Positions 4,565 through 21,551 of a stretch of 64,000 nucleotides of DNA are shown here, piece after piece (positions within the stretch are counted from its first letter, which is position 1; each line of letters starts with the position of its first letter). The DNA comes from a virus. The notes beneath the pieces were generated by a model. It ran no database searches. It worked only from the letters and a program-made list of their open reading frames with translations, and had not been told where the DNA came from. The translations under genes were made by a program, and so were the position numbers. The stretch covers positions 1 to 64,000 of the IMG/VR virus record IMGVR_UViG_3300023174_000080; one strand, 5' to 3'.

Positions 4565-4828
4565 ATGAAAGATTCAAAATACAACATAGGAGATCTTGTA
4601 GCTACTTATGTTGAGCTTGATGATGCAAATGATAAATTATTATTAGGATGGATAGTTAGTAAAAACAAATATGTCACCATAGATAACAAAATGACATGGA
4701 TATATGATATAGAATGGGCCGATGGTGAAATGGAAGATGAAGTGGAAGAAGACGTTGTTTATAATGTCATAAAAGCATATCGGGAAGCAAAGCGTTACAA
4801 GCGTTGGACGCGAAGTAGATGGATATGA
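4565..4828 (+). CDS. Small SH3/KOW-like protein (GDLV family)
   Basis: KYNIGDLV...LGWIV...YDIEW. Confidence 0.7.
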   Translation: MKDSKYNIGDLVATYVELDDANDKLLLGWIVSKNKYVTIDNKMTWIYDIEWADGEMEDEVEEDVVYNVIKAYREAKRYKRWTRSRWI

Positions 4829-5544
4829 TAACTACCGAAGATGAATTAATAAAAAGATGCGTAGAATTAGTGAACGGACCCCCTCTGCCGGTGATTGGCA
4901 AGGGGGATAAACGTTTTGGCATGACGCTAGAGAGTTATATGAATATCGATATAAATTCTCGCGTAACAAGCGATATTGAAAGTCTTGATTTAGAAATAAA
5001 AGCAAAAATAAAAAAGGAAACAGACTTAACGCTTTTCTCAACAAAGCCAGCTTTTCTACGCTTGAATAGCGATGAGTTCTTTCGTATTCATAACAAATTA
5101 AAAGATAACACTGAATCACTATACACAGACGTAGGCGGCGGTGTGAACTCTTTTGGTTTGCAAATAAGCATCCAACAAACGGCTGAAGACATAGAAATGA
5201 TTATTTATGATGCTGAACGGAATATAAACCGCGCTTCAATCAACTTTGGTCACATCAAGCATATAGCAAGGATGAAAATGCGGAACCTCTTGGTCGCCTA
5301 CGGCGACAGATTGGAGGTTGCGGGCGTCGAACATGTCCGGTTTGATTCAGTGCATATTCATCAAAATTTGAATTTGACGAACGAAAAGATTCGTGACTTT
5401 CTACTTAATAATAAGATGGTTTATTCTTTCAGACAGCGGAAGCGTCATGGGAAATATAAAGACCATGGAAGTGCGTTCCGTTTGACGGATCCAAAATATT
5501 TGAAAGAATTATATAACAATTATGAAGCAATAGAACGTAAATGA
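4819..5544 (+). CDS. MvaI/BcnI-family PD-(D/E)XK restriction endonuclease-like protein
   Basis: GxTLE..MNIDINS..SD..LEIK...LTLFS..P and C-terminal DHGSAFR motifs typical of the family. Confidence 0.75.
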   Translation: MDMITTEDELIKRCVELVNGPPLPVIGKGDKRFGMTLESYMNIDINSRVTSDIESLDLEIKAKIKKETDLTLFSTKPAFLRLNSDEFFRIHNKLKDNTESLYTDVGGGVNSFGLQISIQQTAEDIEMIIYDAERNINRASINFGHIKHIARMKMRNLLVAYGDRLEVAGVEHVRFDSVHIHQNLNLTNEKIRDFLLNNKMVYSFRQRKRHGKYKDHGSAFRLTDPKYLKELYNNYEAIERK

Positions 5545-9009: not shown

Positions 9010-9077
9010 TCTCCACTGTTGACGTTGAGGTAAGCTAGATGTATGATGACGATACTTCTTATGAGGTGTTAAATAAC

Positions 9078-9599
9078 ATGAAAGTACTTACTCTGGCTTC
9101 TAACTATGAGCCGCTTGGTGTTGTATCTTGGGAGCGAGCTATATCTCTTATTTTTTCTAATAAAGTAACTACTTTAGAAGAATATGAAAATATTATTCGT
9201 TCACCATCTGTTACAATGAAAATACCAGCGGTTATTGTATTTAAAAATAATAAACGTGGTAAACAGAAAAATTCTGTACGTTTTTCTAGAAAGAATGTTT
9301 GGATTCGTGACGAAGGAAAGTGTCAATATTGTCAAAGATATGTTTCAATAGCGACATTTACTATTGATCACGTTAATCCAAAGACAGCTGGTGGGAAAAC
9401 TGTTTGGGAAAATGTTGTTACGTGTTGTTATGATTGTAACCAAGAAAAAGGCGATAAACAGTTAAAAGATGTAAATTTTAAACTAATTAAATTGCCAAAA
9501 AAACCAAATAGACTTCCATATATTCAAGAAATTACTGATGGTCATTATAATTTAGAAAAAAATATACCACAATCTTGGAAATTCTATTTAGAAAGATAA
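9078..9599 (+). CDS. HNH endonuclease (McrA/HNH_5-like)
   Basis: VLTLASNYEPL N-term; CQYC..TIDHV.P..GG..WENVVTCC..CN..KG; GAGGTG SD supports ATG 9078. Confidence 0.88.
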   Translation: MKVLTLASNYEPLGVVSWERAISLIFSNKVTTLEEYENIIRSPSVTMKIPAVIVFKNNKRGKQKNSVRFSRKNVWIRDEGKCQYCQRYVSIATFTIDHVNPKTAGGKTVWENVVTCCYDCNQEKGDKQLKDVNFKLIKLPKKPNRLPYIQEITDGHYNLEKNIPQSWKFYLER

Positions 9600-14961: not shown

Positions 14962-15352
14962 AATACAAGAATATAAAAATAATACTTGTAAAGATTATTC
15001 AGTAATTAAAGTTCTTCGTGAACAAAAAAAAAGTAATGATTATTTTGAAATAATGCTAAATAATCTTACTTTAGAAGAGATTATAGCATTAAAATTAGAA
15101 TTAACTTATAAAAGTATTGGCGTTGCTTTATATGGTTTTCCAATATGGAACTCAACTGTTTTTATAGTAAGAGATGCAATTTTAAAATATGCCTTATCAA
15201 TATCATCTAGTAAATCTATGGCAGCAAGATATTTAGGTGTAAGAATAAATATAATATCTAATCTTTTAAAGAAATATAATGTTGAAGAATTCTTTAAAAG
15301 ACATAAAAAATTAAAGGAAAAAACAGATGATAATAACAGAACAACAGCTTAA
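14933..15352 (+). CDS. Fis-type HTH DNA-binding protein
   Basis: C-terminal ILKYALS..SSKSMAARYLGV...LLKKYNV resembles the Fis/bEBP HTH_8. Confidence 0.6.
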   Translation: MTTLRSHLGKIQEYKNNTCKDYSVIKVLREQKKSNDYFEIMLNNLTLEEIIALKLELTYKSIGVALYGFPIWNSTVFIVRDAILKYALSISSSKSMAARYLGVRINIISNLLKKYNVEEFFKRHKKLKEKTDDNNRTTA

Positions 15353-15899
15353 AAAAATATATCCTAACATAAAACAAGATAAATTACAATTATATGTTAA
15401 AGCTTTTAATAATGTTTTTCCTACCTATGGTATCAATACCGCTAGACGCATTGCTGCATTTCTTGGACAAGTCGGCGTTGAAAGCGGAGAACTCAAATAC
15501 GACAAAGAGCTAGCTTCTAAATATAATAAAAAAGATATTGGTAATAGATTTGAACCAATTGGAACATTATATGAAGGAAGAAAAAATTTAGGTAATACAC
15601 AAGCTGGCGATGGTCCTAAGTTTATTGGTCGTGGTATTCTTCAATTAACAGGTAGAGCTAACTATGAAAATATGTCTAAAATATTAGGAATTGATTTAGT
15701 TAATAATCCTGAATTAGCATGTGATCCAGAAGTTAGTACTAAAATTGCTTGTGAATATTTTAAAAAACGTGGATTATTAGAATTAGCTGATGAATGGAAT
15801 TTAGATGAAATAACACGTAGGGTTAATGGTAATGCTAAATTACATCACAATATAAGAGTTAAATATAGTGAAGCTGCATTAAAAATATTAGATAAATAG
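15327..15899 (+). CDS. Glycoside hydrolase family 19 endolysin
   Basis: AAFLGQ..VES, LGNTQAGDG.KFIGRGILQLTGRANY, ITRRVNG motifs. Confidence 0.9.
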   Translation: MIITEQQLKKIYPNIKQDKLQLYVKAFNNVFPTYGINTARRIAAFLGQVGVESGELKYDKELASKYNKKDIGNRFEPIGTLYEGRKNLGNTQAGDGPKFIGRGILQLTGRANYENMSKILGIDLVNNPELACDPEVSTKIACEYFKKRGLLELADEWNLDEITRRVNGNAKLHHNIRVKYSEAALKILDK

Positions 15900-15901
15900 T
15901 T

Positions 15902-16211
15902 AATATTAGGTAGTAGGCTTAGAAGTAGCCATCTTTAAAGAGTGAAACAAAATCCTTGGCTAGTAGATATATGTCCGTTAACAGCGGAGAGCTATGTGAA
16001 GTTTACCCGAAGAAAGCGTAACGAAACCCGATGTCAGTTACGTAGACAACAAGCTAGTAGGTAAGCTCTAATATATCATAAATCTTGGGGGTTGGGTAAT
16101 AGGAAAGTCAGTTAATTCTGATGGGATAGAAAAAAACTTAAGATATAATCATTGAAAAGATTATATTGTTTATTTCCTCCCTTTCTTTAGTGTAGTAACA
16201 CGCCTAATATT
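15902..16211 (+). ncRNA. Structured ncRNA mimicking the 23S rRNA uL11-binding/GTPase-associated centre (H43-H44) with a large structured insert
   Basis: 5' GTAGGCTTAGAAGTAGCCATCTTTAAAGAGT matches H43; 3' GTGTAGTAACAC matches H44; 9-bp closing stem AATATTAGG/CCTAATATT; no ORF; multiple internal helices. Confidence 0.85.
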
Positions 16212-16228
16212 GATGTTGATGAGGAAAC

Positions 16229-16492
16229 ATGAAAAAAAATAAAATTGGTAAATGGAATTATAGAGTTTTTAAAACAATTAAATCAAATGGTTTAGAAGAA
16301 TATGGTATAGTAGAAGTATTTTATGACACTAAAGATAAACCAGTTGGATACACTGATTTTCAAATTCCTTGGGGTGAAAATTTAAAAGATTTGAAATGGG
16401 AATTATCTTCTATGTTAAAATCTTGTAGACAAGAAGTTTTAACAGAACAAGATTTTAAACCGAGAAAAAAAAATGCAAAAAGCAAAAGTTAA
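16229..16492 (+). CDS. Hypothetical protein (WNYRV...IVEVFYD family), paralog 1
   Basis: GAGG SD; similar to next gene. Confidence 0.7.
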   Translation: MKKNKIGKWNYRVFKTIKSNGLEEYGIVEVFYDTKDKPVGYTDFQIPWGENLKDLKWELSSMLKSCRQEVLTEQDFKPRKKNAKSKS

Positions 16493-16787
16493 AGATTGGG
16501 ATTATAGAGTTTATAAATCCGGTGATTTTTTTGGAATAGTAGAAGTTTATTATGATAAATCAGGAAAGATAGTTGGTTTTAGTGATTATAATTATCCATT
16601 TGGCTACACTGAACAAGAATTAAAAATGGATTTAAATACAATGCAAAGAGCGTTCAAAAAACCAATATTAAACGAATCAGATCTTAAAAAAAATAATAAA
16701 TCTATAAGAAAAAAAAGAACAATTATTCCATCAATTTCTAAACCTCCATTAAAAGAAGAAATTTCAAAAGGACAACAGAATGTCTAA
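16473..16787 (+). CDS. Hypothetical protein (WDYRV...IVEVYYD family), paralog 2
   Basis: Tandem paralogue. Confidence 0.7.
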   Translation: MQKAKVKDWDYRVYKSGDFFGIVEVYYDKSGKIVGFSDYNYPFGYTEQELKMDLNTMQRAFKKPILNESDLKKNNKSIRKKRTIIPSISKPPLKEEISKGQQNV

Positions 16788-19633: not shown

Positions 19634-20194
19634 ATGAACAACAACCAAAACATCCAAAATTATAACATCGTTGATAAGTATAAGTTTGATCGCCTCACTC
19701 AGTGGACTACAGAATTGATTAAAAAAGATCTCCAACAAAAAGCTTTTCCATTCTCAGTTATGATGGAAAATCTTGTTGGAGATTTTAATTTGTCTTCTGT
19801 TCTTCGTTCATGTAACGCTATGAACGGTCGTGAAATGTTCTATCTTGGTCGTAAACAGTATGATAGGCGTGGAACTGTTGGTACCCACCATTACACTGAT
19901 ATAATTAATCTAAAGGACCGTGAAGAGCTTCTAAAGCTAAAAGATCGGTATACTTTTGTTGCCCTTGAAAACAGTGTTCCACAAGCAGAAAGTATTTATA
20001 ATTTTGAATGGCCTGAAAATCCATTAATTATCATTGGAGAAGAAGGTGTTGGTATAACGCAAGAAACGCTAGCTATTTGTGATAGATTTGTATTTATTCC
20101 ACAGTTTGGAAGTGTAAGAAGCATGAATGCAGCAGTAGCTGGAAGTATCGCAATGAATGATTTTGTGATGAAATATCACAAAAAGAACAGATAA
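19634..20194 (+). CDS. SpoU/TrmH-family (SPOUT) RNA 2'-O-methyltransferase
   Basis: NLSSVLRS, IIIGEEGVG, IPQFGSVRSMNAAVAGSI motifs. Confidence 0.88.
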   Translation: MNNNQNIQNYNIVDKYKFDRLTQWTTELIKKDLQQKAFPFSVMMENLVGDFNLSSVLRSCNAMNGREMFYLGRKQYDRRGTVGTHHYTDIINLKDREELLKLKDRYTFVALENSVPQAESIYNFEWPENPLIIIGEEGVGITQETLAICDRFVFIPQFGSVRSMNAAVAGSIAMNDFVMKYHKKNR

Positions 20195-20237: not shown

Positions 20238-21551
20238 ATGTCAAAAAAATACTATGTGTTGGACACAAATGTATATCTAAGCGATTGTGATGCAGTATTT
20301 GCTTATAAGAATAATAACGTAGCAATTCCATTAAAAGTATTAGAGGAAGTTGATAAACATAAAAAACGTCAAGATGGCGTTGGCGCTAATGCAAGACAGT
20401 TTATTCGTACTCTTGATGAACTACGCCAAAAAGGCAGCTTAGATGAAGGTGCAAAGCTTGGTAAGGGAAAAGGAACCATTTCAGTAATTCCATGTGATTT
20501 ATCTCTATTACCAACTGGCTTTGAAAAAGATAATGCCGATAATCAAATTATTGCTGCTGCTCTAACCCTCATTCGTGAATTAGGTGATAATAAAAATGTA
20601 TTCTTAGTATCTCAAGATATCAACATGAGAGTTAAATGCGACTCTCTTGGTATTAGTACTGAAGATTATATCCCAAATCAGATCGTAGAGAGAGCAGAAG
20701 AGGTATTTACAGGCTTTACTCAATATCTTGTAGATGATGCTTTTATTGATCGTTTTTATGCAGGAGAAAAGATTTTATTAGAAGAAAAAGATATTAAACT
20801 TCATCCTAATCAATTTCTAATGCTTGTATCTAATGCAAACGATAAAAAGACTGCATTAGCAAGATTTAGAGCATATAATTTACCACTTTCAAAAGTAAAA
20901 GAATATAAAAATGGTATTTGGGGTATTCATGCAAAAAATAAAGAGCAACAGTTTGCTTTAGAATTGTTAATGGATCCAGAAGTTAAGATAGTTTCTATCA
21001 TTGGTCGTGCCGGTGGAGGCAAAACTCTCAATGCTTTGGCTGCTGGTCTTCAACAAATTCTTGATGATAAGATCTATAAAAAGCTAATCGTATCTCGTCC
21101 AGTTCAACCAATGGGTAAAGATATAGGTTATTTGCCGGGAACACTAGAAGAAAAAATGTCTCCTTGGTTAGCTCCCGTTCAAGACAACCTTGAATTCCTT
21201 ATGGGTGACGATAAGGCACATTTACAGATGCTAATGGAAGCTGGAACTATTGAAATGGAAGCATTGACATATATTCGTGGTCGCTCTATAGCTAATGCCT
21301 TTATTATTATTGATGAATCTCAAAATTTAACATCACATGAGTTAAAAACTATAATTACTCGCGTTGGTGAAGGCACAAAAATTGTACTAACAGGCGATAT
21401 TGAACAAATCGATAATGCATATGTAGATGCTACCACTAATGGTCTTACATATGCTGTTGAAAAATTAAAAGCTTATGATATAACTGGTCATATAACATTG
21501 AAAAAAGGCGAAAGGTCCGCAGTTGCTAGCCTTGCTGCTTCTGTTCTATAG
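20238..21551 (+). CDS. phoH: PIN-domain plus PhoH-family ATPase
   Basis: VLDTNV PIN motif; GRAGGGKT Walker A; IGYLPG, RGRS, IIDESQN, GDIEQID. Confidence 0.92.
   Translation: MSKKYYVLDTNVYLSDCDAVFAYKNNNVAIPLKVLEEVDKHKKRQDGVGANARQFIRTLDELRQKGSLDEGAKLGKGKGTISVIPCDLSLLPTGFEKDNADNQIIAAALTLIRELGDNKNVFLVSQDINMRVKCDSLGISTEDYIPNQIVERAEEVFTGFTQYLVDDAFIDRFYAGEKILLEEKDIKLHPNQFLMLVSNANDKKTALARFRAYNLPLSKVKEYKNGIWGIHAKNKEQQFALELLMDPEVKIVSIIGRAGGGKTLNALAAGLQQILDDKIYKKLIVSRPVQPMGKDIGYLPGTLEEKMSPWLAPVQDNLEFLMGDDKAHLQMLMEAGTIEMEALTYIRGRSIANAFIIIDESQNLTSHELKTIITRVGEGTKIVLTGDIEQIDNAYVDATTNGLTYAVEKLKAYDITGHITLKKGERSAVASLAASVL

Follow-up and report, generated by a model that had tools for sequence, protein, structure and literature searches.

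A phage RNA family resembling the GTPase-associated centre of 23S rRNA, a candidate off-ribosome site for uL11

The autoregulatory mRNA leaders of L10(L12)4 and L1 imitate ribosomal RNA (rRNA) binding sites, 6S RNA imitates the open promoter, and viruses are known to copy transfer RNAs (tRNAs), transfer-messenger RNAs (tmRNAs) and ribosomal proteins. For a virus copying a folded rRNA domain, no described case was found in the literature searched. Here we describe a non-coding RNA gene of approximately 316 nt from a lake-water phage (IMG/VR record IMGVR_UViG_3300023174_000080), located at 15899-16214 on the plus strand of the window, by which we mean the whole stretch of 64,000 nucleotides analysed. 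The two ends of this RNA together rebuild the GTPase-associated centre (GAC) of 23S rRNA, comprising the tip of helix 42 (H42), H43 and H44, around a 246-nt insert at position 1090/1091.

Like the ribosomal protein leaders, this is an extra-ribosomal RNA imitating an rRNA site for the binding of a ribosomal protein, such binding being a proposal for the phage RNA. The leaders, however, are cis-acting, lie upstream of ribosomal protein genes in cellular genomes and imitate their site loosely, whereas the phage RNA is a near-exact copy and in many relatives lies among tRNA genes, with phrog_21321 genes rather than a ribosomal protein gene downstream in the window. At most family loci it shares neighbourhood and strand with the tRNAs and tmRNAs of phages, all being copies of host translation RNAs in large phages. 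Phage tRNAs and tmRNAs do the same work in translation as the RNAs they copy; this is not possible for an rRNA domain on its own, and the phage RNA must therefore act by imitation. The logic proposed for it, of an abundant RNA that mimics a cellular nucleic-acid site and occupies the binding partner of that site, is the one known from 6S RNA and the phage pseudo-ToxI antitoxin mimic (PMC3475682). The present case differs from both in that the object imitated is an rRNA domain and the partner is putative.

The gap that holds the RNA gene is bounded by a GH19 endolysin gene (15327-15899) and a small gene (16229-16492), and the start of the RNA gene overlaps the final base of the endolysin stop codon. 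The 9-bp closing stem proposed in a preliminary description of the window was confirmed, as 15902-15910 (AATATTAGG) is exactly complementary to 16203-16211 (CCTAATATT); with G.U pairs counted it extends to 15899-15910/16203-16214, and it was seen in both minimum free energy (MFE) and centroid folds. The same description had called the gap free of open reading frames (ORFs). This needs amending, as a 40-aa GTG ORF lies inside it at 15942-16064; we rejected it as a gene since relatives carry 1- and 2-base indels there that break the frame.

The E. coli 23S sequence used for comparison was taken from L134, one of the loci collected in this analysis (L-numbers throughout), whose record numbering is offset by 4; positions follow what we take to be the standard E. 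coli numbering, anchored on A1067 and A1095. The 5' end of the RNA (15913-15943) was identical to E. coli 1059-1090 at 27 of 32 positions and the 3' end (16190-16201) to 1091-1102 at 8 of 12. The alignment proposed at the outset stood, except that the 5' part needs a one-base deletion, seen as a single 1-base gap. The base identities read from it were all as claimed: U1060 (15914), A1061 (15915), A1067 (15921), G1071 (15925), U1072 (15926) and A1088 (15941) on the 5' side, with U1090-A1101 (15943/16200), G1091-C1100 (16190/16199), U1092-A1099 (16191/16198) and A1095 (16194) in H44.

The H43 18-mer, allowing two mismatches or fewer, occurred once in 64 kb and in none of 100 shuffles. The Rfam model of the bacterial large subunit (LSU) rRNA, RF02541, aligned 15908-15956 to the H43 region at 13.9 bits (E 0.042 with 501 bases searched), short of its gathering score of 50 and matching only model positions 1095-1146. 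Neither the RNA nor 15 related loci matched a family of Rfam 15. There was no other rRNA piece in the 64-kb window, where Rfam at gathering thresholds gave two tRNAs only; the RNA is thus not part of an rRNA gene. The H43/H44 secondary structure and the conserved junction and loop bases of RF02541 are present in the window RNA, and the base triples G1071.(G1091-C1100) and 1072.(1092-1099) are present as judged by covariation, G1071, G1091 and C1100 being kept and 1072 switching along with 1092-1099. H44 is not continuous, since 246 nt separate U1090 (15943) from G1091 (16190).

Motif scans of viral contigs revealed that the window RNA has many relatives. Pattern 1, which fixes 1066-1071, 1073-1077 and 1082-1089, gave at least 112 stretches, and pattern 2, in which the H43 loop was left free and 1074-1077, 1079 and 1081-1090 are fixed, gave at least 120; conservation is not judgeable at the positions fixed by each pattern. 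Both scans together hold at least 129 distinct 5' halves, of which 127 are split. Among the pattern 1 stretches, three are unsplit copies (L040, L080 and L083), one is a chance match (L075) and the remainder run into unrelated sequence past 1090. The 3' half and closing stem were located in 75 distinct elements, including the window and four named-phage loci; they were not locatable in 14 loci, many with just 300 bases of flank, and the placement in L019 was wrong. The unsplit copies (at about 680-750) are approximately 70 nt long, with their own closing stem and U1101, and come from viral contigs of 15-42 kb; there is no tRNA within 700 nt of the copy in L080.

The rules of the split form were derived from 83 distinct, fully parsed elements, complemented for the H43 loop by 88 distinct members found with the loop unconstrained. 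The insert always leaves the core at 1090/1091, is 27-357 nt long and belongs to unrelated sequence types. Its base helix has three or four of four positions paired in 78/83, built from 42 different 5' tetramers, its final base is G in 73/83 and A in 10/83 (A also in the window), and the linker that follows is UUUG in 65, UUUA in 10 and different in 8. Position 1101 is A in 81/83 split members and U in rRNA and the unsplit copies. The window fits these rules, with its insert at 1090/1091, base helix GAAA/UUUC, linker UUUA and A1101. A covariance model, R1, was built from an alignment of 24 short-insert members (A2) that includes no sequence of the window's lineage. R1 matched the window end to end at 15902-16212 (61.8 bits, E 8.5e-18, model positions 1-169), nearly the coordinates proposed in the preliminary description; this was its only match in the 118,946-base virus record. 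It scored the true E. coli 23S site at 48.4 bits and, of the first 100 pattern 2 stretches, recognised 87 as containing a member of the family.

The family extends to cultured phages. A blastn search of a phage collection recovered the 5' piece from four named phages (Cronobacter GAP32, Pectobacterium CBB, Ralstonia RSP15 and Pseudomonas pf16), each time in a gap that carries no annotation, the pf16 copy sitting inside a tRNA array. A second search added Pseudomonas UNO-G1W1, Milchi and Astolliot, Aeromonas 4_4572, Xanthomonas XacN1 and Paenibacillus Pd_22F; its other matches were bacterial 23S pieces filed under phage records. When E. coli genomes were searched with the window's 43-nt piece there was no match at that database size, and a closer family member was used. 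Across a collection of 185,579 species genomes the 3'-half motif occurred at only 25 places, almost every one of them in a metagenome bin; a 5' half was recognisable at eight or more. The family is thus essentially viral. Full-text literature searches, with subscription-only papers and supplements outside their reach, returned no description of such a phage RNA, and the family is apparently undescribed.

Covariation supports an rRNA-like fold. In A2 the rRNA-like structure paired 97.6% of cells, compared with 72.9% in shuffles and 36-62% in slid controls, and its covariation score of 0.649 (0.167 in shuffles) was reached by 0/500 shuffles. Both sides changed in all nine closing-stem pairs, three pairs of the insert base helix, 1058-1080 and 1092-1099. 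The preliminary description had pointed to a joint change of 1072 and the 1092-1099 pair in the window, and this holds across homologues: the combinations found in the 83 members were C with C-G (56), U with U-A (21), U with U.G (5) and C with U-A (1), never U with C-G. Fisher's test gives p 1e-20, which is not a true probability as the sequences are related. Position 1058-1080 was G-C in 29, U-A in 28, A-U in 20, C-G in 5 and G.U in 1, between A1057, G1059 and U1060, each invariant (83/83). Invariant bases beside a covarying pair fit recognition of the H43 stem or a tertiary contact. Position 1061 was unconstrained (U in 30, A in 29, G in 22 and C in 2), as it is in rRNA according to PMC6239185. 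As a separate observation, in three loci (L262, L265 and L132) the top of H43 has changed jointly, with A1064-U1074 and G1073 in place of C1064-G1074 and A1073.

The loops are less strictly kept. On the ribosome, A1067 meets translation factors and thiostrepton. Among the 88 loop-unconstrained members, U1066 and A1073 were invariant and G1071 was kept in 85; 1067 was A in 66, G in 21 and U in 1, with G1068 kept in 61, A1069 in 79 and A1070 in 72, and the canonical H43 loop was present in only 38. In H44, G1093, U1094 and A1098 were invariant (83/83), A1095 was kept in 76/83, 1096 was a purine in 82 and 1097 was free. According to PMC6239185, the rRNA fold gains no hydrogen bond from A1067 or A1069; A1070 and A1095 do not vary in rRNA despite having no tertiary contacts, and A1095 meets cofactors. 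By this comparison the family keeps the bases that build the fold, together with the H43 stem, and relaxes part of the surface that meets factors. Because the fold and H43 stem are fixed while the exposed bases 1067-1070 and 1095 vary, the pattern favours recognition of the fold, whose known ligand is uL11, over a full copy of the factor site. Retention of A1067 and A1095 in most members leaves room for a role of both bases.

Set beside the GAC itself (E. coli 1051-1108, an autonomous domain of approximately 58-60 nt that binds uL11 and thiostrepton), the phage RNA has the same secondary structure and junction, the non-Watson-Crick positions 1060.1078 and 1061.1077, the triple formers G1071 and Y1072, which covary with 1092-1099, and the bases U1066, A1073, G1093, U1094 and A1098, likewise invariant in the phage family. 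Unlike the rRNA domain, it is a free-standing gene under its own, unrelated closing stem, with H44 broken by the insert and its UUUR linker, U1101 replaced by A1101, loop bases 1067-1070 and 1095-1097 relaxed and, in the window's lineage, no 1057-1081 pair.

That lineage was collected through the endolysin gene: 16 related viral loci, at 61-93% identity in amino acids, were reached in this way, 13 of them with the RNA in the same slot. The RNA was absent from the endolysin slot of L128, L129 and L131, the slot of L128 holding a tmRNA. In the lineage alignment A1 (the window and nine non-identical relatives) the members share one insert type with strongly conserved blocks; no relative of this insert was found outside the lineage, in 116 other loci or in the phage collection. 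The core structure in A1 paired 89.6% of cells against 83.0% in shuffles, a value reached by 0/500, and nine pairs changed on both sides; for the closing stem taken by itself, 12 pairs were counted and five had changed on both sides. G1087-C1102 and U1090-A1101 were kept in all ten sequences. In the lineage 1057 is U and 1081 is missing, which removes both partners of that pair, although the most distant member, L132, retains it; 8/10 members have U at 1086, with loss of the 1082-1086 pair that the window retains. The H43 loops of relatives read UUAAAAG, CCAGAAG, UUAACAG, UUACAAG, UUAGGGG and UUUGAAG, varying at 1065-1070, and 1095 is C or G in two relatives. The lineage is a drifted branch, of which the window copy is the most rRNA-like. 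In two of its members the core also carries a second insertion, between C1079 and U1082, with an extra hairpin of 30-45 nt (approximately L119:3790-3835 and L130:4130-4170).

In 41 of 60 family loci, tRNA or tmRNA genes lie no more than 700 nt away; they share the strand of the RNA in every case, and in many the gap between their end and the RNA is just a few bases. Within the lineage, a tRNA-Gly ends 0-2 nt before the RNA in four relatives and a tmRNA ends at the RNA start in one; arrays of 4-6 tRNAs ending in tRNA-Gly precede it in L119, L120, L123 and L133. The nearest tRNAs in the window are tRNA-Ala, 1.8 kb downstream, and tRNA-Ser, 3.1 kb downstream, both on the same strand. Promoter-like sites around the RNA were at chance level (7 against 7.7 expected) and there were no terminators, so the RNA is probably excised from a longer transcript. 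DNA of the window was present in lake and freshwater metagenomes. One river metatranscriptome gave a 161-nt contig inside the RNA (15928-16088, one difference) and nothing convincing from neighbouring genes; we set this contig aside as evidence, since contigs from DNA runs are broken at this place too and RNA libraries can contain DNA.

The explanation we favour, with a probability of roughly 45%, is that the RNA presents the uL11 site in stable form away from the ribosome and so captures uL11 of the host. The C-terminal domain of L11 binds H43/H44 tightly (PMC3592554), and L11 binding requires the tertiary fold (PMC6239185); binding of uL11 by the phage RNA is proposed from this dependence together with the conservation of the fold. 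No phage uL11 gene was found in any of five RNA-bearing records, so any uL11 partner would be host-encoded. Under this proposal, a stable trans-acting RNA with putative ends at 15899 and 16214 (+) would be transcribed with the stable-RNA genes of the phage and be released by tRNA 3' processing, its 5' end lying directly against a tRNA or tmRNA in relatives. Its 5' 45 or so nucleotides and 3' 25 or so would meet under the 12-bp closing stem to form a compact fold of H43, H44, junction and two triples, with a 242-nt structured domain and the UUUA linker projecting from the 5' strand of H44 at 1090/1091. The C-terminal domain of host uL11 would bind this free folded core, and the phage would thereby hold or divert the protein. 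The insert would be a lineage-specific accessory domain; the unsplit copies, with their own closing stem, demonstrate that the core occurs without cargo. Weaker activation of RelA could follow as a downstream effect, a consequence that we regard as doubtful. The more general proposition, that large phages of many hosts carry a replica of the uL11 centre within their tRNA sets and use it to capture host uL11 and perhaps, by way of uL11 or of the lineage-specific inserts, other translation or stringent-response factors, we put forward only tentatively.

Several points weigh against capture of uL11. The protein may be unavailable to a decoy when it is on mature ribosomes, and what a phage would gain by holding it is conjecture. 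The exposed bases 1067-1070 and 1095 vary, so the RNA does not reproduce the site in all its functions. Loss of 1057-1081 in the lineage, and of 1082-1086 in 8/10 of its members, might weaken a uL11 site, and the strong conservation of the insert there could mean that the insert rather than the core carries the function.

The RNA might instead be a decoy or sink for something acting at the GAC, such as a host defence or a competitor's toxin that cuts or modifies H43/H44, a translational GTPase, RelA or a thiopeptide, and so spare the ribosomes that translate for the phage; we consider this unlikely. The tRNA sets of phages may compensate for attacks on translation, and members of the family adjoin phage tRNA and tmRNA genes. 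The mimicry is close, as judged by the Rfam LSU model, R1 and identity to E. coli. Agents of the right kind exist: the toxin Tre23 ADP-ribosylates H44 at about 1095-1098 and blocks the GTPase activity of EF-G (PMC8661411), and the ACT domain of RelA contacts the tip of H43 (PMC5291266). Retention of A1095 (76/83) and A1067 (66/88), of which the first makes no tertiary contact and the second contributes no hydrogen bond to the tertiary fold (PMC6239185), would also suit a decoy. Yet 1067-1070 and, less so, 1095 are the positions that vary, across members and within the window's lineage, and a stoichiometric sink is poorly suited against an enzyme. A defence directed at the GAC is not known from phage hosts; none surfaced in the searches on the RNA, which were not aimed at such a system.

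It seems quite unlikely that the GAC fold is a scaffold, a nuclease-resistant three-way junction presenting an insert that does the work, with cargo differing by lineage. The range of insert lengths and unrelated sequence types, the constant exit point with its base helix and conserved linker, and the conservation of the insert in the window's lineage while the H43/H44 loop bases drift would all be expected of such a scaffold. The insert-less copies (L040, L080 and L083) and inserts of as little as 27 nt would not, and a scaffold has no need for invariant A1057, G1059 and U1060 or for the rRNA-like loops of most members. A role purely in cis, as an element that marks cleavage sites or blocks exonucleases in polycistronic transcripts, is very unlikely: it would account for the RNA adjoining tRNA 3' ends at many loci, beginning at the endolysin stop codon in the window and lacking promoter and terminator signals above chance, but any stable hairpin would do for this purpose, leaving unexplained the rRNA-like junction, base triples and loop bases conserved in 83 members.

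The remaining idea, that the RNA is debris or artefact (a decayed host 23S piece, an intron-split rRNA fragment or a chance likeness), can draw on the 5' half alone resembling 23S rRNA and is dismissed by the lack of any other rRNA segment in 64 kb, the covarying closing stem that each member has of its own, the more than 100 family members in viral contigs, the absence of a group I intron match in Rfam with insert ends and lengths as given above, the 18-mer test, the switching of the triple, the covariation in A2 and the match to R1. The view taken at the outset, of a selected and folded mimic rather than decayed rRNA, is upheld by the first of these, the split phage family, the helix covariation and the joint change of 1072 with 1092-1099. 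A group I intron had been considered since the 5' part ends in U and the insert often ends in G; it was rejected on the terminal A in the window and 10/83 members and the 27-nt inserts, and Rfam gave no group I match at E up to 10 in the window RNA or up to 0.1 in 15 related loci. A sarcin-ricin loop mimic in the pf16-type insert was also rejected, being a loose likeness by eye with no LSU match at E up to 0.1.

Binding of uL11, or of factors that act at the GTPase centre, would make the RNA a new phage route to control of host translation or the stringent response; if capture of uL11 is correct, the family would form a class of viral RNAs by which host translation control is rewired through imitation of an rRNA domain. 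Bench tests are feasible because cultured phages carry members of the family, their hosts being Pseudomonas, Aeromonas, Xanthomonas, Cronobacter, Pectobacterium, Ralstonia and Paenibacillus. The family also constitutes a natural experiment that separates the bases of the GAC needed for its fold from those needed for its function, and the insertion point and linker reveal where this fold accepts large cargo, which is useful in RNA design.

Table 1. Features of the phage RNA in the window; numbers from 1057 to 1103 are E. coli 23S positions.
Feature	Position	Strand	Details and basis
Closing stem, 5' strand (replaces H42 tip)	15899-15910	+	pairs with 16203-16214; sequence, MFE and centroid folds
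H43 equivalent (1057-1080)	15911-15934	+	Rfam LSU alignment, 18-mer test, E. coli identity, model R1
H43 stem pairs	15912-15913/15933-15934; 15916-15918/15928-15930	+	
H43 non-Watson-Crick positions	U1060.U1078, A1061.A1077	+	
H43 loop, nine bases (1065-1073)	15919-15927	+	includes A1067, G1071, U1072
Junction and H44 5' strand (1082-1090)	15935-15943	+	U1082-A1086 pair, G1087, A1088, G1089, U1090
Lineage-specific inserted domain, 242 nt	15944-16185	+	conserved blocks in lineage alignment A1
Insert base helix GAAA/UUUC	15944-15947/16182-16185	+	3/4 pairs changed on both sides
Insert inner helices, supported	15966-15970/16073-16077; 15988-15991/16066-16069; 16016-16022/16037-16043	+	covariation, alifold
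Insert inner hairpin	15974-15979/15983-15988	+	57/60 cells paired, nearly invariant, one extra pair type
Insert MFE hairpins	16107-16111/16118-16122; 16142-16150/16159-16167	+	MFE
Single-stranded linker UUUA, insert to G1091	16186-16189	+	conserved linker, UUUG or UUUA in most family members
H44 tip, then A1101, C1102, G1103	16190-16202	+	G1091-C1100, U1092-A1099, loop GUAGUA with A1095
Closing stem, 3' strand	16203-16214	+	sequence, folds, lineage alignment

ViennaRNA folded the 3' hairpin as 4 bp with a tetraloop; comparison across the family supports the rRNA-like register of 2 bp with a hexaloop. Consensus folding of the whole insert yielded a partial structure only. Within it, the block GGUUGGG (16090-16096) is invariant in the lineage and has several possible partner segments. 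Two further features were considered and discarded: an anti-Shine-Dalgarno-like CCUCC (16176-16181) is a coincidence, as it varies in the lineage and acts as a helix strand, and pairing of the linker with 1084-1087 is not supported, as A1086 is replaced by U in 8/10 lineage members with the linker unchanged.

The slot behind the endolysin gene is a hot spot for stable RNAs in the lineage, with tmRNAs at L125:3063-3408 and L128:3356-3644. Downstream of the RNA in the window, 16229-16492 and 16473-16787 (+) are tandem paralogous small genes (phrog_21321, of unknown function), which follow the RNA in relatives too. Directly after tRNA-Ser, 19634-20194 (+) encodes a 186-aa SpoU-family 2'-O-methyltransferase (PF00588, E 2e-23), whose nearest solved relatives are TrmH tRNA Gm18 methylases and not Tsr-like enzymes. 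It may modify phage tRNAs; a general link with the RNA was rejected since the gene is present in only 1/5 RNA-bearing records. Adjoining it, 20238-21551 (+) encodes a fusion of PIN and PhoH (a PhoH2-like RNA helicase/nuclease; NF053827, E 2.5e-93, below the cut-off). The early region contains an MvaI/BcnI-family restriction endonuclease-like gene at 4819-5544 (+) and an HNH endonuclease gene at 9039-9599 (+).

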